Assembly (NCBI GenBank): GCA_945788225.1 | Contig: CALZLD010000001.1 | Coordinates: forward strand, 1 to 46,718 | Direction of reading: 5' to 3' | Length of the DNA stretch: 46,718 nt | Origin: an uncultured Clostridia bacterium | GTDB lineage: Bacteria; Bacillota; Clostridia; Oscillospirales; Ruminococcaceae | In this document: piece after piece, positions 7,419 through 20,960 of the stretch | Layout of the letters: every line of letters starts with the position of its first letter | How positions within the stretch are numbered: position 1 is the first letter of the stretch | The notes under the pieces: model-generated | Database searches by the model: none | The model's input: the letters and a program-made list of their open reading frames with translations, nothing else | What the model was told of the DNA's origin: nothing | Translations under genes and position numbers: made by a program

Positions 7419-9515
7419 TCATTTTCTGTTGTCGCTGTCAATCGGCTTTGGAACGGGAGCCGACGCTCCGCTCTTTGCGGATGAGGCAAATCCGAAATTC
7501 GATTTGCCGTGCTTCTTTACGCCGTACATTGCTTCGTCCGCCGCATTGAGCAATTCTTCGCAGTTCTTGCCGTTTTCGTTGAAGTGGGCAATACCTATAG
7601 AACAGTTAATAGAAAGATGCTCGCCCGTTGATTCGGATGTGAAGCCCTTGGACATTGTCTTTATAAGGTCGCCCGCAACATCAGCGGGAGCAACATTCGG
7701 AACATTGATACAAGCAACAAATTCGTCGCCTCCGAAACGACCTGCAAAGCCTCTCTCAAATGTGAGTTCTTTCAAGGTGTCGGCTGTAAATTTGAGTACT
7801 TCGTCGCCGCAGGCGTGGCCAAAATCATCGTTGAAGTGCTTGAAATCGTCAAGGTCGATAAACATAATAAAGCTGTTATATTTGCGGACGGTCGAGAGCT
7901 CAAACTCATTGGCAAGTGCCTTGATAAAGCTTTCTCTGTTATAAACCTGAGTCAGAGCGTCAAAGTTTGCTCTCTGGATAAGACGCATTTCATCGCGCTT
8001 TTCACGGTCAATGTCAACTATGACGCCGATAAGCTTGGTGGGAACATCGTCACGGTCAAAGAACTTTGTGGCACGGATGAGCACCCACGCAAAGTCGCCG
8101 TAGATATTCTGGAATCGGTATTCGCCCTGAAGATAGTTGGAGCCTGTGCCCAAAATTCTGTCAAGGTCGGCAAAATATCTTTCACGGTCGTCCTTATGTA
8201 TTCTCAGCTTATAGAAAAAGCTGTCCTGAATATCGTCCGATTTAGGTCTGAAACTGAACTTTTTGTTGAAATTATTTGAAACATAGACAGTCTGTTTTGA
8301 GAAGTTAATCTCAAACACAATATTGTTTGTCATTTCAACAATGGTACGGTAACGCTGTTCGCTTTCAAAAACATCGTCAAACATCGCGTTGAACGCTCTG
8401 CCTATCTGACCGTATTCATCATAGGAATCAACATCAAATCTTGCCTTCTGGTCTCCTCTGCTCTTTTTGGTGAGAACATTGACAATATTGAGAATAGGCT
8501 TTGAAAAATAAATCACAAAGAACACGATAATTGCAGTTTCAAGAACAAAGCATACAACCGTCGCAATCTTGAAAGCGGTCGTGTTGATGTTGAGTTCTTT
8601 GGCAATATCATTTCTGCCGACTATTGTAACAAGCTTCCAGTTTGTTCCGCAGATGCCTGTAATATGAACAAATTCGGTTGTGCGGTCTATATCTGTTTTT
8701 TCAAATATTTCATTGTCGGATAAATCTGCTCTGGAAAAAATATCCGTATATACAGAGAAGTTGTTATCTTTTTTATACTCGCTTGCCTTTCCGCTTGAAA
8801 GCGAAAGAATGTTTTGATAAGCGTCGGTTATTCCGCCTGTTGACGAACCTATAACCTTTGTATCAAAGAGATTTTTCTGTATCTGGGTTGTTGTGCAAAG
8901 CTGAACGAATGTTCCGACATTATTTTCATCGTATGTAATATTCCTGCAAACAAGGAATGCCGCGGTGGTTGTTCCGCCAACCTTGATATTGATGAAATCA
9001 GATACTCCCCCGCTGTTTGACGCAAGCGAAATTCTGTCGGGATCATCGGAGATAACTGACAGATATTCATCGCACCCCTCGGACATTACGATGACATTGC
9101 CCTCAGCGTCAAGAATAACGGCAAGCTCGACATTCGGATTGCTTTGTTGATATGAATTGACCGAATTCTGAACATAAGCTTTGATATCGTCAAGTCGGCT
9201 GTAATCGGGATGATAAGGTCTGTCATAAGGCGACATTGACATAATCGCAGTGTAAGAGGAAATATCTTTATTTATGGCTATATTTCTGCCGTGGTTCTGT
9301 AATTCATTGACAAAAGAGCCGACCATCTCCGCTCTTGCCGAAGCTGAACTGCATATAACCTGCATTGCTGCGGAATCGACGGCATCCGAAGATTCTTTAA
9401 AAGCAACTATATTGAAAATCGCCATTGCAATCAAAGCAATAAGCGCCATTGCAAGCGCAAATTTTGTTGTAATTTTCAGAATGTCGCCCCCTTTTTCGGA
9501 AATATCAATATACAC
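7419..9515 (-). CDS. Sensor diguanylate cyclase (TM, large extracytoplasmic Cache-like region, TM, HAMP, PAS, GGDEF)
   Basis: 698 aa. Two hydrophobic segments bracket about 280 aa. The C-terminal GGDEF domain has an intact RFGGDEF active site and YNRESF. The start is uncertain: the track start is a GTG without an RBS, and an AAAGGGGG RBS sits just inside the ORF. Confidence 0.85.
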   Translation of the reverse strand: MYIDISEKGGDILKITTKFALAMALIALIAMAIFNIVAFKESSDAVDSAAMQVICSSASARAEMVGSFVNELQNHGRNIAINKDISSYTAIMSMSPYDRPYHPDYSRLDDIKAYVQNSVNSYQQSNPNVELAVILDAEGNVIVMSEGCDEYLSVISDDPDRISLASNSGGVSDFINIKVGGTTTAAFLVCRNITYDENNVGTFVQLCTTTQIQKNLFDTKVIGSSTGGITDAYQNILSLSSGKASEYKKDNNFSVYTDIFSRADLSDNEIFEKTDIDRTTEFVHITGICGTNWKLVTIVGRNDIAKELNINTTAFKIATVVCFVLETAIIVFFVIYFSKPILNIVNVLTKKSRGDQKARFDVDSYDEYGQIGRAFNAMFDDVFESEQRYRTIVEMTNNIVFEINFSKQTVYVSNNFNKKFSFRPKSDDIQDSFFYKLRIHKDDRERYFADLDRILGTGSNYLQGEYRFQNIYGDFAWVLIRATKFFDRDDVPTKLIGVIVDIDREKRDEMRLIQRANFDALTQVYNRESFIKALANEFELSTVRKYNSFIMFIDLDDFKHFNDDFGHACGDEVLKFTADTLKELTFERGFAGRFGGDEFVACINVPNVAPADVAGDLIKTMSKGFTSESTGEHLSINCSIGIAHFNENGKNCEELLNAADEAMYGVKKHGKSNFGFASSAKSGASAPVPKPIDSDNRK

Positions 9516-13897: not shown

Positions 13898-15760
13898 CTA
13901 TTTATAGTCGGGAGACTCCGCCGTTGCACGATACTCCGCAGCCTCTTTGAGCGTTGCGTTGAAATCGTCCTCGTCAAGCGGTTTACCGAGAAGATAACCC
14001 TGAACGCAGTCACAACCGCAATCGCGCAGGAAATTAAGCTGTTCTTCAACTTCTACTCCCTCTGCCACAACGAACAGATTCATATTATGCGCAAGAGAAA
14101 TTATCGAGCCGACAATTTCCTTTTCGGACTCGGCACGGTTGATGCCGTCAACAAAGGACTTATCAATCTTCAAGGTATCGATCGGGAGAGAGCGGAGATA
14201 ATGAAGCGACGAATAGCCTGTTCCGAAATCGTCAAGCGCTATGGATATTCCAAGTTCCTTTATCTTATTGAGAACTTCAACGGCGCTGTCGACGGACTTT
14301 ATGAAAACAGACTCAGTAATCTCTATTTCAAGATTTCTGCCGTAAACACCCGTTTCTTTCATAACGCTTTCAATAATATCGTAAAAATCGGGTTGCATAA
14401 GCTGAATTGTAGAAATATTGACGGAAAGAACTATATCATCAAGACCGTATGTATCCATAGCCGTGCGGAGCTTCCGACAAGCCTCACGGAAAATCCATGT
14501 GCCGAGCTCAATGATAAGACCTGTTTCCTCAGCCATAGGAATAAACTGTACGGGGCTGACAAGACCGAGTTCCTCTGAACGCCAGCGGACGAGAGCCTCA
14601 AAGCCGCGGAGCTTTTTGCCGTCGGGAGCGTGCTGGGGCTGGAACATAAGGTGAAATTCTTCTTTGTTAATACCTGCGACAAGGCTCGCCTCAAAGTCGA
14701 CCTTGCTCTGAATTTCTTCTTTCATCTCGTGGCTGAAAAATTCAACTCTGTTTCTTCCCTCGGACTTCGCTTTGTAAAGCGCCATATCGGCGCATTTAAG
14801 CAGTTCTGTTGAATCGCTTCCGTCTTTCGGATAAGCGGAAGCGCCGAAGCTTGCGTTAACCGATACCTCTTCATCCTCTATCTGAATCGGGGCGGAAATA
14901 GCTTTGCGGATTTCTTCGATATAATCAAGTATTTCAGCCTTTTCGATGTCACGCTGAATGAGAATTGCAAATTCGTCTCCGCTGAGTCTGCCGAACATAT
15001 CGTCGGAATCGAGTGTGGATGTTACACGCTGGGCAATTTTCTTTATTACAATATCGCCACGGTCGTGGCCTAAAATATCGTTGACTCTCTTGAAATTGTC
15101 AAGGTCGATGAACACAACGGTGAATTTCTTGTTCATCTTTGCTGAAAAGCTTATATGAAAGTCAAGTCTGTTGATTATCATTCTTCTGTTTGGAAGCTCG
15201 GTGAGTTCATCGAACAATGCCATGTGGTTGAGTCGTTCTTCGTTTTCTTTAATTACTCTTGACGACTCGATAAGCTGTTCGTTGATTTTTCTGACTTCCT
15301 CGTAGGCTTCCTCGGCTTCCTCGGCAAGCTTGATAAGTTCCTCGCGCTGTTCCTTTGCCTCTCTCATTGAATGATAGAGCTTTCTCATAATAACAAAAAG
15401 GAATGTAATGGAGATAATTGTTCCTATCGGGATAACTACACCCATCAACGAAAAAGGAACATCGGGAATAAGCATTGACAGAAAAACATTTGCTATGGAA
15501 AGAACGCTTAGAATAATAGCGGTAACATATCCCCTCTTATAATACCTGGCTGTAAGGACTATGGCGACAGCAACCTGCAACTGTGCTATTATGCTTTTAG
15601 CAAACATAACAGTAGTGAATGCCTGAACTACCATCATGAAAACATAAAGAAGGCACCAGAATACTATGAAGGCAATATCCTTTTTATTGCGTTCTTCAAT
15701 GACCTTTTCATCAGCCTCTTCGCCGACTATTTCATCAACGCAATCGGAAATATTCCGCAT
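13898..15760 (-). CDS. Membrane-bound GGDEF-EAL protein (c-di-GMP cyclase/phosphodiesterase; GGDEF motif is SGDEF)
   Basis: 620 aa. Has 4-5 N-terminal hydrophobic helices, a coiled-coil linker and a GGDEF domain with RLSGDEFAIL. The EAL domain has EALVRW, DDFGTGYSSL and KIDKSF motifs. ATG with an AAAGGGGTGA RBS. Confidence 0.88.
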   Translation of the reverse strand: MRNISDCVDEIVGEEADEKVIEERNKKDIAFIVFWCLLYVFMMVVQAFTTVMFAKSIIAQLQVAVAIVLTARYYKRGYVTAIILSVLSIANVFLSMLIPDVPFSLMGVVIPIGTIISITFLFVIMRKLYHSMREAKEQREELIKLAEEAEEAYEEVRKINEQLIESSRVIKENEERLNHMALFDELTELPNRRMIINRLDFHISFSAKMNKKFTVVFIDLDNFKRVNDILGHDRGDIVIKKIAQRVTSTLDSDDMFGRLSGDEFAILIQRDIEKAEILDYIEEIRKAISAPIQIEDEEVSVNASFGASAYPKDGSDSTELLKCADMALYKAKSEGRNRVEFFSHEMKEEIQSKVDFEASLVAGINKEEFHLMFQPQHAPDGKKLRGFEALVRWRSEELGLVSPVQFIPMAEETGLIIELGTWIFREACRKLRTAMDTYGLDDIVLSVNISTIQLMQPDFYDIIESVMKETGVYGRNLEIEITESVFIKSVDSAVEVLNKIKELGISIALDDFGTGYSSLHYLRSLPIDTLKIDKSFVDGINRAESEKEIVGSIISLAHNMNLFVVAEGVEVEEQLNFLRDCGCDCVQGYLLGKPLDEDDFNATLKEAAEYRATAESPDYK

Positions 15761-15939: not shown

Positions 15940-15968
15940 TTGACAATTTTATAGTTATTTGTTATAAT
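15940..15968 (+). promoter_or_regulatory. Consensus sigma-A promoter for the dynamin-like operon
   Basis: TTGACA (15940-15945), 17-nt spacer, TGTTATAAT (TATAAT at 15963-15968, extended -10 TG). Lies about 60 nt upstream of the first ATG. Confidence 0.7.
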
Positions 15969-16029: not shown

Positions 16030-18111
16030 ATGAACCAGACCTTTGATTACGGAAGCTATTCCGCCTATAAAGAAACGGTGGAAACCCTTAAGGAAAGACT
16101 TACTCTTCTTATGCAGTATTGCGACTCTCTGGGACTTGAACGAACCTCGAAGTCTATTGCGGCAACGATAGAAAAAGTTGCGCAGGAGCATTTTGAGGTT
16201 GCTATTGTCGGCGAGTTCAAAAGAGGAAAATCGACCCTTATCAACGCGATGCTCGGACAGGAAGTTCTTCCTGCCGATGTTCTTCCCGCTACGGCGACAT
16301 TGAACAGAGTTACATACAGTGAAACTCCTTATGTTACAATTGAATACAAAAGCGGAGAAAAAGAAAGCGTTGATATTGCAGAGCTTGCAAATTATGTTAC
16401 AAAGCTTTCATTTGAATCGGAACAGAAAGCTGAGACCATAAAAGAAGCTACGGTTTATTACGACACCGACTTCTGCAAAAACAATGTCGATATTATCGAC
16501 ACTCCGGGTCTCAACGATGACGAGCAGATGACAAATGTTACATTGTCAATACTGCCTGAAATTGACGCCGCTGTTTTTGTAATCAGCGCAAATTCTCCTT
16601 TTTCCCAGTTTGAAAAGGAATTTCTTGAAAAGAAGATGCTGACGAGCGACCTCGGAAGAATAATTTTCGCAGTAAACTGCTTCGGCACCTTTGCGCGCGA
16701 GGACGAGGAACGCATCGTTGAAACTGTCCGCAAGCGTATCGGACAGTATGTTATGGACAAAGCCAAGGCGGTTATGGGCGAGGATTCTAAGGAATTTGCA
16801 GTCTATAAGCGCAAGATAGGTCTTCCCAAGGTTATAGGAGTATATGCAAAGAAAGCCCTCGTTGCAAAACAGACGGGCGACGCCGCTATGCTTGAAGAAA
16901 GTAACTTCCCCGTTTTCGAGCATACGCTTGAATCTCTGCTCACAAAGGACAGAGGTTCTATCACCTTACAGATGCTTGCAAACAAGATTATCAGTTCAGG
17001 TTCGGAGCTTATCAACTCTACTGTTCTTCGCGAAAACGCACTTCTTATGGAAACAGACGAGTTCCTTGAAAAATATCAGGCTGCCATAGATGAAATCGAG
17101 GATATCCGAACCAAGAAGCGTGAAGAATTTGTAAGAATCAACGAGGCCGCAAACAAGGCATTCACCGACTTGCAGCCTATCCTTGACGATTACTGGGTTC
17201 AGATTGAAGACACCGCAATGCAGGTTATCGACGAATTCCCGATGACATCGGAAGACCTCAAGCGTGACAGAATGAAGCTTGTCAACGCAAAACTTACCGA
17301 AAAGATAAGAGAAAGCATCGAAAACAAGGCACAGCTCATCTGTGAACAGATTCAGAATGAGATTAACATTGCCCTTTCGGACGAAGCGGAGCGTCTGCAA
17401 TCCTTCGAGGACGAATTCTTTGCGTCGGTTAACCGAATTCAAGAGATGTTCTCTGTTCCCGAGCGCCCTGTTAATCAGGTTATCGGCTCGGCAATAGGCT
17501 CTATCATAAACTTTGGCGTCGGCGGAATATTCATCGGCTTCCGCGAGGCAGGCGTCAAGGGTGCGCTCTTAGGCGGAGTTACAGGCTTTGCAGGATTCTA
17601 TGCAACATTCTTTGCGGCTATTTATCTTGCCGGAGCGCTCGGAATTGCAACAGCGGGACCTGTTACTCTCTGCGTTATCGCTATAGCAGGTATAGCAGGA
17701 ACATTCTCGGGCAAGTTCTCGGTTGACAAACTGCTCGTTCAGGAAAGAATAGAAAAGTACAAGGCTGATTTCAAGTCGACCGTTAAAAAGCAGTTCAAGG
17801 AAATGAAAATTAATTCGGACTTCTCGGAAACTGTTCGTCAGCAGGTATTCAATTCGTTTGAAGGACTCAAAGCAAAGCTTGAAAGCGAAACCGAGGTCAT
17901 CCTTGAAGATACACAGAAAACCCTTGACAACCTCAACAAGCTCAAGGCTGAACAGAAAGAACTTTCGGATTCCGAGAGAGAATGGCTCAGAAGCGTTGCA
18001 GAGTATGTCGGCGGTCTTCTTGCCGAGGCTTACGGTCTTTATCAGACCATTACAAAAGTCGAGGAAGAAACCGTTGCGGGAACTGATGAAGAAGAAGCTC
18101 AGACTGTATAA
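16030..18111 (+). CDS. Dynamin-family GTPase (bacterial dynamin-like protein) with an internal glycine-rich double transmembrane hairpin
   Basis: 693 aa. P-loop GEFKRGKSTLINAMLG (16210-), G3 DTPGLND (16498-), and a long helical stalk. Hydrophobic Gly-rich segment GSAIGSIINFGVGGIFIGF...GALLGGVTGFAGFYATFFAAIYLAGALGIATAGPVTLCVIAIAGIAG (about 17478-17720). Coiled-coil C-terminus with an acidic tail. AGGAGG RBS. Confidence 0.85.
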   Translation: MNQTFDYGSYSAYKETVETLKERLTLLMQYCDSLGLERTSKSIAATIEKVAQEHFEVAIVGEFKRGKSTLINAMLGQEVLPADVLPATATLNRVTYSETPYVTIEYKSGEKESVDIAELANYVTKLSFESEQKAETIKEATVYYDTDFCKNNVDIIDTPGLNDDEQMTNVTLSILPEIDAAVFVISANSPFSQFEKEFLEKKMLTSDLGRIIFAVNCFGTFAREDEERIVETVRKRIGQYVMDKAKAVMGEDSKEFAVYKRKIGLPKVIGVYAKKALVAKQTGDAAMLEESNFPVFEHTLESLLTKDRGSITLQMLANKIISSGSELINSTVLRENALLMETDEFLEKYQAAIDEIEDIRTKKREEFVRINEAANKAFTDLQPILDDYWVQIEDTAMQVIDEFPMTSEDLKRDRMKLVNAKLTEKIRESIENKAQLICEQIQNEINIALSDEAERLQSFEDEFFASVNRIQEMFSVPERPVNQVIGSAIGSIINFGVGGIFIGFREAGVKGALLGGVTGFAGFYATFFAAIYLAGALGIATAGPVTLCVIAIAGIAGTFSGKFSVDKLLVQERIEKYKADFKSTVKKQFKEMKINSDFSETVRQQVFNSFEGLKAKLESETEVILEDTQKTLDNLNKLKAEQKELSDSEREWLRSVAEYVGGLLAEAYGLYQTITKVEEETVAGTDEEEAQTV

Positions 18112-18151
18112 CTTATGTTCTGTTTAAATAACCATTAAGGAGGCCGACTCG

Positions 18152-19138
18152 ATGAGTTCAGCTATTGAATATGAAAATCCCTTGCTTAAAATAGACACAA
18201 GCTTTCAGTCCTATCTTATTCTTCATTCACTTACTCCGAAGATTACATCGGAAAGCGTTAATTACGCCTTTCAGACAGAATGTCTCTCAAGGCAGTCTCT
18301 GAATAGCATCACGGGCTGGAATAAGCTTGTAAAATCAATCACCTCAACCGATATGCCCTCAGTTATGAAAAGATATTTTGACGGAGCTGTGACGGTTGAC
18401 GGTTGGAATAACACAAAAATATACGACATTGCAAAAACCTGTGCGGAAAGGTTAAAGGCGCGTCTGCCTGCCATTATGATAAACACAAAAATCCAGACGC
18501 CTGAACTTGTTGCGGTTTTTGCAGAGGGTATTGAACCCTGCATAATAATGACAAAATCACTTGTCGGAATGTGCAGTGAAGAAGAACTTGTATTTGTTCT
18601 TGCAACGGGTATTTCGAGAACGCACAACAACCACTGCATCTATAATTTTATCGCCCCGTACATAGGCTTTGCCGACGGTAACGAAAGACAGAAAAACTTT
18701 ACGCGTATCGAAAGCATACCGAAGCAGCTCAATTATATTATGACGGATTGGGCGCGCTTTGCAGATGTAACAAACGACCGCGCTGTTATGATTTGTCTTG
18801 ACGAACCCGAAAGGTTCCCGTTTATTCTCAAATCGCTGTCCGATAAGAAAATACCGCTCTTTATGAATTATGACAATGATGAGAAGTTCAAACCCGAGAG
18901 CGTTATTGACGACTATAACAAAACTGTAAAATTCACGGCGGCGAGGGACCTTAATATTCCGCCCGAAACAACAAGGGCAGAAAGAAGAATACTGTGCGCG
19001 CTTGAATTTTTAAACTGCGAAATATATTACAACTGCCGCAGCGACATCAGTTCAGAAGGCCGCGGACATATTGTAAACAAGCCGATGATAGACCTTCGTT
19101 GTGACATTATTATCGGCGCTTCCAAGGGGGTTGAGTAA
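18152..19138 (+). CDS. Hypothetical protein resembling an M48-family metallopeptidase with the HExxH and third-ligand motifs replaced (predicted pseudo-peptidase)
   Basis: 328 aa with a TAAGGAGG RBS. The segment PELVAVFAEGIEPCIIMTKSLVGMCSEEELVFVLATGISRTHNNH follows the M48 pattern (lnAFa.G..p.Ivvt.gL...l..eEl.fVLaHElgHi.n.H), but HELGH is TGISR. The downstream WARFADVTNDRA matches the E..ADr region with the Glu replaced by Ala. This is motif-level recognition only. Confidence 0.45.
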   Translation: MSSAIEYENPLLKIDTSFQSYLILHSLTPKITSESVNYAFQTECLSRQSLNSITGWNKLVKSITSTDMPSVMKRYFDGAVTVDGWNNTKIYDIAKTCAERLKARLPAIMINTKIQTPELVAVFAEGIEPCIIMTKSLVGMCSEEELVFVLATGISRTHNNHCIYNFIAPYIGFADGNERQKNFTRIESIPKQLNYIMTDWARFADVTNDRAVMICLDEPERFPFILKSLSDKKIPLFMNYDNDEKFKPESVIDDYNKTVKFTAARDLNIPPETTRAERRILCALEFLNCEIYYNCRSDISSEGRGHIVNKPMIDLRCDIIIGASKGVE

Positions 19139-19139
19139 T

Positions 19140-20912
19140 ATGGATAACGAAAAGATAACAAGTCAGTCCGCGCTCAATCTCGACAATGCGTTAAAATGTA
19201 TCGAATTTGTTCAGAACAGCTATCAGAGCCTTATCAACGACAAGGAACTCTGTGAGATTTTGGGCGATGAATTCTCTGCCAGAATGAAAGAGTGGGACAG
19301 CGTTATAACAAAGCGCCGCAACGAACCTTTTTCTCTTGTAATACTCGGAGATTTCAAGCGCGGAAAAAGTACGATAATTAACGCAATTTTAGGAAAGCAG
19401 CTTGCTCCCGTCAACGCCGCGCCCGAAACCTTTACAATCAATACGATTTCTTACGGCGAAAAGCCATCGGTAACGGCAATTCTTAAAAACGGGATTAAAA
19501 AGGAACTTACTATAAACGACCTTGTGCGTGACCGTCTTGAACAGATAATGCAGACTCTTCCCTCTCCTATTGATTATGTGGATGTGAGGGACAATGCTGA
19601 AATTCTGAAAGAGGTAAGGATAGTCGATACCCCCGGTCTTTCGGATATGAACGACCTTGATCAGCAGGTTCAGGATTATCTTATCAACGCCGACGCCGTT
19701 ATTTATGTAGCGTCTGCCCTGCTTCCGTTTTCCGAATCGGAGCAGATGTTCCTTGCAACGCATGTTGCACCGCAGAAATTCGGCAAGATATATGTTCTTG
19801 TCAATATGATTGACGCGCTCAATTCAAGAGAGGACATTGACAAAATACTCACGAGAGTAGCAAACTGCTGTCAGCAGATTGTTCCGAACGCTGTTGTTTA
19901 CGGTATCAGCGGTATCGACGAATTCAAGAGAAAGACAGACGCTCCGAGGGCCGACCTCAAAGGTTTTCAGGAGTATTATGAAACGGAATTCTTCAAGTTT
20001 GAGCGTTCTCTGCGCCGTGATATTATTACGCAGAAGGACTATCTGAGAGTTCAGCGTGTTCTCACCATGCAGGAAATAATGCTTGAAGATACCGCCGCGA
20101 GAGTTGATATGATATCCGAAGTTTCTGCTCTTGACAAGCAAAAGCTTGATACTCTTATGGAGGGTTTTCAGCAGGAAGGTGCAAATCTTAATGCAGCTAT
20201 CGAGGCAAACAGACCTAAGCTTCTTTTAAGCATTGCAGAGATGAAGCAGGAAGCTGAACGCTGGATGTATGAATTCTTCTCAAAGCTGCGTGAAGATATT
20301 GTGGCTTGCAGAAACGAAGTTACCGCAGAAGATGTTGAAGCGCATTTTCACTCCTATCTTATGGATAAAGTCGGCGAAGCTTACCGCAAATGCATCGAGG
20401 CTCACCAGGCGAGAACCGACGCTCTTATCGAAAGAATGAGCAGAGACCTTGCCAAAAAGCTGGGCATTGGCAATCTTGCCGTAAACGCCGCAAGCGGCGG
20501 AAATGTCAGCGACTATATGCGCGAAGTAAACGAGCAGGTAGCAAAGTCGGTAAAGAATGTTACGGGCAAGGGTTCGGGAACATTCCCCTCGGCTACAATT
20601 TCGTCTTTCAAGCTTATTTTAAGAACAAAGAAGCGTTCAGACATTATTGATGTTACGCTTGAAAAGTTTGACGAGATAAGAAACAGCACTGTCAAGGACC
20701 TTTCGGTTGCCTATGCAACTCTTGAAGAAAAAGCGTTAAAGCGTTTTGACAATCTTTATGAGACTCAGCTCAATATGGGCAAGGACGCTATAAATCAGAC
20801 CAAGGAAATCCTTGACAAGACCGATAATGAAAAGATGTCGAGTGTTTTTGAAAAAACAAGAACGGTTCTTGATAATGCAAGAAACGCTCTCAATGAAACT
20901 GCTTTTGTTTAA
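19140..20912 (+). CDS. Dynamin-family GTPase (bacterial dynamin-like protein), soluble partner
   Basis: 590 aa from the ATG at 19140, 1 nt after the preceding stop and behind an AGGGGG RBS. P-loop GDFKRGKSTIINAILG, G3 DTPGLSD, G4-like VNMID, and a long helical C-terminal half. No hydrophobic segment. The track ORF start at 19101 overlaps the previous gene and is less likely. Confidence 0.85.
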   Translation: MDNEKITSQSALNLDNALKCIEFVQNSYQSLINDKELCEILGDEFSARMKEWDSVITKRRNEPFSLVILGDFKRGKSTIINAILGKQLAPVNAAPETFTINTISYGEKPSVTAILKNGIKKELTINDLVRDRLEQIMQTLPSPIDYVDVRDNAEILKEVRIVDTPGLSDMNDLDQQVQDYLINADAVIYVASALLPFSESEQMFLATHVAPQKFGKIYVLVNMIDALNSREDIDKILTRVANCCQQIVPNAVVYGISGIDEFKRKTDAPRADLKGFQEYYETEFFKFERSLRRDIITQKDYLRVQRVLTMQEIMLEDTAARVDMISEVSALDKQKLDTLMEGFQQEGANLNAAIEANRPKLLLSIAEMKQEAERWMYEFFSKLREDIVACRNEVTAEDVEAHFHSYLMDKVGEAYRKCIEAHQARTDALIERMSRDLAKKLGIGNLAVNAASGGNVSDYMREVNEQVAKSVKNVTGKGSGTFPSATISSFKLILRTKKRSDIIDVTLEKFDEIRNSTVKDLSVAYATLEEKALKRFDNLYETQLNMGKDAINQTKEILDKTDNEKMSSVFEKTRTVLDNARNALNETAFV

Positions 20913-20920
20913 TAATATGA

Positions 20921-20960
20921 AAACAAGCCTGAGAAGACTGCAATCTTCTCGGGCTTGTTT
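20921..20960. terminator. Strong bidirectional terminator
   Basis: AAACAAGCCTGAGAAGA-ctgcaa-TCTTCTCGGGCTTGTTT: about a 16-bp stem with A/T-rich flanks. Sits between the convergent dynamin operon and the GNAT gene. Confidence 0.9.

Follow-up and report, generated by a model that had tools for sequence, protein, structure and literature searches.

A predicted M48-derived pseudo-peptidase encoded between two dynamin-like GTPase genes in an uncultured Clostridia bacterium

We investigated a 46,718-nucleotide (nt) stretch of DNA from an uncultured Clostridia bacterium (assembly GCA_945788225.1, contig CALZLD010000001.1, positions 1 to 46,718; hereafter, the window). In it, three consecutive genes encode a dynamin-like protein (DLP1), a protein that we call X, and a second dynamin-like protein (DLP2) (Table 1). 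A preliminary description, made from the sequence alone, had read X as a catalytically dead peptidase of the M48 family embedded between two dynamin genes. The open reading frame (ORF) of X is real, encodes 328 amino acids (aa) behind an AAGGAGG motif, and has Dynamin_N matches on both flanks. The central claim, that a protein derived from M48 and lacking a canonical zinc site has been kept beside DLP genes, was borne out by profile–profile alignment, predicted fold, the ratio of nonsynonymous to synonymous substitution rates (dN/dS), and synteny.

Both neighbors of X are dynamin-like GTPases. The Pfam model Dynamin_N matched DLP1 at E 3.4e-31 and DLP2 at E 1.3e-22, and DLP1 also matched Dynamin-like_hel_bact. 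Compared with the structure of Nostoc BDLP (2j68), DLP1 aligned over its full length (E 2.4e-26), and DLP2 matched at E 1.8e-17. The GTPase motifs are intact in both proteins: the G1/P-loop reads GEFKRGKS at residue 61 of DLP1 and GDFKRGKS at residue 70 of DLP2, and DTPG lies at residues 157 and 163, respectively. DLP1 contains a long hydrophobic stretch (windows from about residues 484–547, Kyte–Doolittle maximum 2.08), and a hydropathy scan found no hydrophobic segment in DLP2. As in paired DLPs, one apparent unit contains two different DLP genes whose GTPase motifs are intact, and one of them has a membrane-binding element.

DLP1, X, and DLP2 look like one transcription unit, as judged from the gene spacing, the ribosome-binding sites, a promoter-like site upstream of DLP1, and unrelated neighbors on the opposite strand. 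The promoter-like site matches all 12 of 12 consensus positions and is the best of the region; it is likely the promoter of the operon, its function being predicted from the consensus match alone. The stop codon of X (TAA, 19136–19138) and the ATG of DLP2 (19140) are separated by 1 nt. The longest DLP2 frame has a GTG start at 19101 and a 38-nt overlap with X (window 19101–19139), but ATG 19140 is more likely the start because it has its own ribosome-binding site and agrees with the gene calls at two related loci, L001 and L002. The genes bordering the cassette are a GGDEF-EAL gene on one side and a GNAT acetyltransferase gene, then MgtE, on the other.

X on its own is a poor match to known peptidase models. 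It scored 14.7 bits (E 0.028) on Pfam PF01435 (Peptidase_M48), whose gathering score is 20.3, and the NCBIfam HtpX model matched it at E 0.005. Searches of PDB sequences with X or its five-sequence profile returned no M48 chain and only noise (3nd1, E 0.3–0.7). A word-indexed protein search found four close relatives (52–87 % identity), and an exhaustive profile search with X and these four yielded 208 proteins at E ≤1e-3. The distant matches carry VIGHECGHIHNxH and WSRxAEVTCDRAG, and the nearest ones G[CSRM]ECG[RKH]. Relatives with an intact motif score 65–104 bits on PF01435 (E 1e-18 to 1e-30), and their source annotations are M48 family metallopeptidase and also "Zn-dependent protease with chaperone function". 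When the profile of the window subclade (A1; X and the four close relatives) was compared with that of 25 intact relatives (A5) in hhalign, the match was 99.9 % (E 2.5e-34), end to end over residues 7–323 of X. Since these intact relatives are themselves members of PF01435, and since the fold agrees, the homology of X to M48 can be taken as secure, although X lies outside the curated cut-off of Pfam. The comparison with PF01435 proposed in the preliminary description thus stayed below threshold when made directly and succeeded through the intact relatives.

The predicted structure is consistent with this ancestry. An AlphaFold2 model based on an alignment of 125 sequences reached a pLDDT of 89.9 and a pTM of 0.86; the five-sequence alignment gave a pLDDT of 42.6 only, and a confident model needed the larger one. 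The nine top PDB matches of the model in Foldseek were all M48 or M56 proteins (probability 0.54–1.00), including HtpX (3cqb), Ste24p (4il3), ZMPSTE24 (2ypt), BlaR1 (8exq), and BepA (6ait), so the HtpX/Ste24-type core with which the model was to be compared was indeed recovered. The best match was HtpX 3cqb, with a probability of 1.00, a TM-score of 0.70 on the target, and a root-mean-square deviation of 1.9 Å. Minigluzincins (selecase and jannalysin) ranked after the top nine. The M48/minigluzincin core fold is therefore present in the model of X.

X has no transmembrane segment (Kyte–Doolittle maximum 1.38), and a membrane-embedded topology of the HtpX/Ste24 type, considered for X, was ruled out because no hydrophobic segment is present. 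HtpX has transmembrane helices in the region between HExxH and the third-ligand helix. Three intact cyanobacterial relatives (P0157, P0183, and P0209) have a mildly hydrophobic stretch between the same two elements (residues about 175–200, Kyte–Doolittle 1.6–1.7), whereas X is hydrophilic there.

The state of the former catalytic site was read from two blocks. The peptides quoted for them in the preliminary description are exact: nt 18590–18634 encode VFVLATGISRTHNNH (residues 147–161), and nt 18746–18784 encode DWARFADVTNDRA (residues 199–211). Both hmmsearch and hhalign place TGISR at the HExxH position, as had been described. The further claim, that all metal ligands and the catalytic Glu are lost, held for both His and the catalytic Glu; the third ligand shows a conservative change of Glu to Asp, not of Glu to Ala. 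In the second block the wrong "AD" had been matched: the M48 "AD" corresponds to N208-D209 of X, not to A204-D205, and the third-ligand Glu aligns with Asp205. No HExxH or HxxEH occurs anywhere in X, which has four His in total (residues 25, 158, 161, and 306), so an intact motif elsewhere in the protein was not found. Within the window subclade, position 205 is Asp in the window, Glu in L002, and Asn in L001 and L007. The catalytic Glu is replaced by G or A in three of the five members; it is still there in L001 and L007, whose motif is TEISR.

A C-terminal His-Pro, invariant in the 25 intact relatives, has also been replaced in X, and Arg278/Arg279 of the same His-Pro...R motif are kept. Zinc coordination has been described as involving a pair of His, one Glu, and a His in a loop, and a loop His, H246 in BepA and H459 in ZMPSTE24, touches zinc or substrate (10.1101/689117). 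We infer that the His of the family His-Pro is the equivalent of this loop His. Around the old active site, E145, N159, D209, R210, and R279 are invariant over the 125 aligned sequences, X included, and H161, W200, T207, and A211 are nearly invariant. As judged from these alignments, the neighborhood of the cleft is kept in X and the canonical metal ligands are gone. Arg156 may fill the former metal site. Apart from the active site, C97, C215, and C317 are at least 90 % conserved over the 125-sequence family, and C289, in a "CE" block, does not vary within the window subclade and matches the consensus of the family as a whole; a further Cys is present in the HECGH motif of intact relatives. 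The four conserved Cys of X might form a structural metal site or disulfides.

Table 1. Genes, sites, and replaced residues of the DLP1–X–DLP2 cassette in the window
Feature	Position	Strand	Description or basis
X (ORF)	18152-19138	+	328 aa; predicted soluble M48-fold protein without zinc/catalytic residues (pseudo-peptidase)
DLP1	16030-18111	+	693 aa; BDLP1-type dynamin-like GTPase with a hydrophobic membrane-anchoring stretch
DLP2	19140-20912	+	590 aa; dynamin-like GTPase without a hydrophobic anchor
Degenerate HExxH position, T152-G153-I154-S155-R156	18605-18619	+	hmmsearch alignment; hhalign against intact relatives
First His of HExxH, now T152			hhalign and hmmsearch registers agree
Catalytic Glu, now G153			Same register in hhalign and hmmsearch
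Second His of HExxH, now R156			Same register in hhalign and hmmsearch
Third-ligand Glu (WSRxAEvTcDRAG of intact relatives), now Asp205	18764-18766	+	Family alignment; hhalign
Invariant C-terminal His-Pro (HPxxxxRI motif), now Thr273-Thr274	18968-18973	+	hhalign; census
Ribosome-binding site of X, AAGGAGG	18137-18143	+	8 nt before ATG; read from sequence
Ribosome-binding site of DLP2, AAGGGGG	19124-19130	+	Within the 3' end of X
Sigma-70-type promoter-like site	15940-15968	+	TTGACA-17-TATAAT, TG-extended; 62 nt upstream of DLP1

Despite its degenerate site, X is strongly constrained by purifying selection and is not decaying: dN/dS is about 0.06 in two independent close pairs (0.059 for the window and L006; 0.061 for L001 and L007), and residues A151, T152, I154, S155, T157, N159, H161, and C162 of the degenerate motif do not vary among the five members of the subclade. 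The reading frame is intact in more than 80 genomes.

A genome scan with one genome per species yielded 80 loci, all from Oscillospiraceae, Ruminococcus, Huintestinicola, or other Clostridia metagenome-assembled genomes (MAGs). At the HExxH position, this clade most often reads CECGR (32), CECGH (18), or SECGR (13), besides rarer variants, and the window subclade has T[GAE]IS[RK]. Asp fills the third-ligand column in 67 of 85 sequences, and the His-Pro is missing from all clade loci. Orthologues in this clade are thus also degenerate, and the intact relatives elsewhere keep HExxH. In a neighbor-joining tree, the degenerate loci group as a single long-stemmed clade that is nested within relatives having HECGH, Glu, and His-Pro; inside this clade, the window subclade (the window, L006, L002, L001, and L007) is sister to the rest. 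On the simplest reading of these sequences, two steps occurred: the first His, the His-Pro, and the Glu ligand would have been lost or changed once at the base of the Oscillospiraceae/Ruminococcus clade, and the second His, the Glu, and the Cys-Gly of the motif would have decayed further in sublineages, most fully in that of the window. In the Ruminococcus sublineage with CECGH, the third-ligand column is Cys (L062, L063, L066, L068, L070, and L078), Tyr (L069, L072, and L083), or Asn (L059 and L060), and also Asp.

The gene arrangement is conserved well beyond the window. In the 82 close loci examined, the order DLP1-X-DLP2 was present wherever the contig was long enough. The tight junction between X and DLP2, which the preliminary description had already pointed out, recurs among them: of 78 loci, 22 have a gap of 1 nt from the stop of X to the ATG of DLP2 and 65 have one of at most 19 nt, and the homologous DLP2 gene calls of L001 and L002 begin 1 nt after X. 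Intact relatives come from Cyanobacteria, a Chloroflexota MAG, and metagenome contigs. Each of the eight look-ups that were informative showed DLP genes beside them (Calothrix PCC 7507, two long MAG contigs, a run-assembly contig, an Ardenticatenaceae MAG, a contig with planctomycete-type neighbors, and two more). The intact profile found 80 metagenome loci, of which 58 have at least 1 kb of downstream sequence. A filter for a downstream DLP on the same strand was passed by 53 of the 58; inspection of coordinates revealed a same-strand DLP after X in the other five as well, one overlapping the filter boundary and four displaced by roughly 1 kb, as expected from an N-terminal fusion.

Conversely, a DLP lies directly upstream in only 25 of 61 metagenome loci, with the position of X taken from domain envelopes. 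In the other 36, distant intact relatives (L131–L174; e.g., L142, L151, L155, L166, and L174), the M48 gene and the following DLP gene occur as a pair alone, without a DLP immediately upstream. Because the downstream DLP is universal and the upstream one is not, the deeply conserved unit is an M48-like gene followed by a DLP2-type gene, with DLP1 a frequent third member. The two-gene unit may be the ancestral core to which DLP1 was added.

Several loci carry additional features. The DLP2-type gene has an N-terminal fusion to an EAD1 effector-associated domain in L088 (3482–5992, the Ardenticatenaceae MAG) and to a Ser/Thr protein kinase domain in L092 (6033–8777), which hints at use of the module in signaling or conflict systems. 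An extra DLP gene and a DZR/zinc-ribbon gene lie just upstream of several cassettes (L086, 1126–3809; L093, 327–2924), a zinc-ribbon gene lies downstream of the cassette in L092 (10890–11005), and in L001 (1–715), whose cassette is closely related to that of the window, a DZR/zinc-ribbon/Prok-RING protein is encoded a few kb upstream. Cyanobacterial cassettes adjoin genes for caspase-like (Peptidase_C14-WD40) and CHAT-domain proteins (L003, 10683–14969; L004, 81–2564). In L055 (5882–10767; MAG AnMBR.bin308), DLP1, X, and DLP2 are all fragmented, which reflects either assembly frameshift errors or the joint decay of the whole cassette. In the window itself, a hairpin, GAGAAGATTGCAGTCTTCTC, occupies 20931–20950, in the space separating DLP2 from the convergent GNAT gene; it was called by the scan for the minus strand alone and may end both transcripts. 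Upstream of the cassette, two proteins of cyclic di-GMP signaling are encoded on the opposite strand, HAMP-PAS-GGDEF at 7419–9515 (−) and the membrane GGDEF-EAL at 13898–15760 (−), with a GH44 glycoside hydrolase and a type III glutamine synthetase (GSIII) between them.

Set beside known proteins, X shares its core fold with M48 (PF01435; HtpX, Ste24/ZMPSTE24, BepA, and OMA1) and M56 (BlaR1). It has the M48 order of motifs, namely a beta-strand block, the active-site helix, the third-ligand helix (xxExxxDRAG), and a C-terminal HPxxxxRI block, and it aligns column for column with the intact M48 relatives. It differs from M48 peptidases in having TGISR in place of HExxH, Asp in place of the Glu ligand, and no His-Pro His. 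Furthermore, it lacks the transmembrane helices of HtpX, Ste24, and OMA1 and the TPR domain of BepA, and has regions of its own, an N-terminal one of about 85 aa and a Cys-containing C-terminal one of about 50 aa. Because X is homologous to M48 yet fails its defining catalytic features, we class it as a predicted M48-derived pseudo-peptidase rather than an M48 peptidase. The marks of a pseudoenzyme are present: X is homologous to active enzymes, lacks their catalytic residues, and is under purifying selection; inactivity itself is predicted. The same pattern, together with a presumed binding or regulatory role, is seen in pseudoproteases such as iRhoms, which belong to another fold and clan. 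We know of no M48-derived pseudoprotease, although our literature searches were not aimed at one.

The DLP pair also has known counterparts. Side-by-side DLP pairs in operons are described as the rule (PMC6104087, PMC5827413). As here, the operons of Campylobacter Cj-DLP1/Cj-DLP2, Nostoc BDLP "Tandem A/B", LeoA/LeoBC, and IniA/IniC contain two different DLP genes with intact G1 and G3 motifs, one partner having a hydrophobic membrane-binding element and the other not. Unlike the described pairs, the present one has a third gene, of M48 ancestry, between the two and tightly joined to DLP2. The papers on DLP pairs that we consulted (PMC6104087, PMC5827413, and a 2025 preprint on Nostoc BDLP) do not mention an M48 or peptidase-like component, and searches of the open-access literature for a link between DLPs and M48, peptidases, or proteases returned nothing relevant. 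DLP1 of the Calothrix cassette was considered as an orthologue of the crystallized Nostoc BDLP1 and rejected, as E of about 1e-30 is at the level of a paralogue.

A further comparison comes from mitochondria, where the M48 protease OMA1, an integral protein of the inner membrane, cleaves the dynamin-like GTPase OPA1. In both cases an M48-family protein is tied to a membrane-remodeling GTPase of the dynamin superfamily. OMA1, however, is membrane-integral and acts by cleavage, whereas X is predicted to be soluble and lacks the catalytic residues. For the intact relatives, the bacterial gene linkage suggests by analogy an M48–DLP relationship comparable to that of OMA1 and OPA1.

Taken together, we consider it probable that X is a non-catalytic descendant of M48 peptidases that serves as a dedicated protein partner of the heterotypic DLP pair. 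Peptide-bond hydrolysis would then not be needed for the conserved role of the family, at least in this clade. The former substrate cleft of X would most likely be the binding surface for DLP2 and perhaps for DLP1. X would be produced at a constant ratio to DLP2 and would serve the heterotypic DLP machine as a regulator or adaptor in stoichiometric amounts, tuning the assembly, GTPase activity, or membrane recruitment of the pair in membrane remodeling or repair. The intact relatives may cleave something besides, possibly the DLP itself, in a manner resembling OMA1 on OPA1. A non-proteolytic role of M48 proteins has a precedent in BepA, for which a possible chaperone activity has been discussed alongside the protease activity (10.1101/689117).

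Several points weigh against this interpretation. We infer the partnership of X with the DLPs solely from gene order and spacing. The direct Pfam match of X alone is under threshold and not significant. The E-values in Foldseek are weak (0.05–0.3), although the ranking is nonetheless consistent, and the alignment behind the AlphaFold2 model is dominated by intact relatives, so that the model represents the fold of the family and not the detail of the degenerate site. All loci were retrieved through X, and the census therefore describes X-bearing loci only. Additionally, most members of the clade retain the Glu and have Cys or His where ligands would be (CECGH, together with D, C, N, or Y). A set of Cys, His, and Cys could be an altered metal site, and some clade members may keep a metal or residual chemistry, because Cys or His occupies their ligand positions and the catalytic Glu is kept.

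The same data can be read in other ways. It is unlikely that X works independently of the DLPs, assisting damaged membrane or envelope proteins as a chaperone-like or holdase factor, and shares their operon only through a common stress. This would fit with the chaperone activity discussed for BepA (10.1101/689117), with the "chaperone function" in the annotations of intact relatives, and with the role in membrane repair in which DLP pairs are thought to act (PMC6104087). Co-regulation alone, however, rarely keeps genes in exactly the same order, and almost without spacing, in lineages as distant as Cyanobacteria, a Chloroflexota MAG, and Oscillospiraceae, and no signal peptide-like or transmembrane segment would place X at a membrane.

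We find it quite improbable that X is still an enzyme whose remodeled site (T152, S155, T157, N159, H161, and C162, with Asp205 or another residue) acts on the DLPs or on a membrane-stress substrate, by hydrolysis that needs no metal or uses one in a different way, or by some other chemistry. No M48 or gluzincin mechanism is known without the two His. The replacement residues are indeed invariant within the window subclade, and residues near the active site are conserved family-wide; other clade members have potential ligands, with Cys at the first-His, His at the second-His, and Asp or Cys at the third position. But the new residues differ among subclades (CECGR, SECGR, CECGH, and TxISR), so that no single alternative constellation is conserved, position 205 varies among D, E, and N even inside the window subclade, and the catalytic Glu has become G or A in three of its five members.

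The three genes could also form an anti-phage or conflict module resembling Eleos (LeoA/LeoBC), with the M48-like protein as a sensor or regulator, a reading that is compatible with a dedicated partnership of X and the DLPs, not exclusive of it, and that we hold to be very unlikely. Among its grounds are the PADLOC LeoA and LeoBC models, which match DLP1 and DLP2 (4e-20 and 1.5e-12); these and the other such matches, ranging from 4e-20 to 6e-11, are at the level that any bacterial DLP would give by generic homology. The EAD1 and kinase fusions of DLP2 in L088 and L092 and the CHAT and caspase-like genes beside cyanobacterial loci point the same way, but the M48 partner, X included, matches no PADLOC family, no relatives were found in viral contigs, and the wider neighbors in the window are housekeeping genes (GSIII, MgtE, ABC transporters, CarB, and GGDEF/EAL). 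Finally, chance similarity to M48 or a decaying pseudogene, to which the direct Pfam score (14.7 against 20.3 bits) and the lack of an M48 chain in the PDB sequence searches might point, is refuted by the end-to-end hhalign match (99.9 %, E 2.5e-34), the fold match, the dN/dS of about 0.06, and the frame intact in more than 80 genomes, and has a negligible chance of being right.

Under current models, DLPs are self-sufficient pairs. Here, many DLP operons, from Cyanobacteria, a Chloroflexota MAG, gut and rumen Oscillospiraceae, and metagenome contigs, carry a third, M48-derived gene joined to DLP2. Paired DLP genes and the M48 fold are known; what is new is a DLP operon with a dedicated third component of predicted M48 fold, in the present case in an apparently catalytically dead form. 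The module of an M48 gene followed by a dynamin gene is widespread, and we found no description of it in the searchable open-access literature. That one clade has dismantled the protease site yet kept the protein constrained leads to the hypothesis of an M48-fold subunit or regulator that would contribute binding, not cleavage. The finding likely adds a family of M48-derived pseudo-peptidases, and it points to an analogy with mitochondrial OMA1 and OPA1. More broadly, we regard it as possible rather than likely that the M48-like protein and the DLP constitute an ancient, dedicated two-component module, often arranged as DLP1-M48-DLP2, in which the M48-fold subunit is a structural regulator of dynamin-like assembly, proteolysis is dispensable, and the intact versions are a prokaryotic counterpart of OMA1–OPA1, with a protein of protease fold in control of a GTPase of the dynamin superfamily. 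If this is true, the pseudo-peptidases of Oscillospiraceae would be a natural experiment showing that proteolysis is dispensable.

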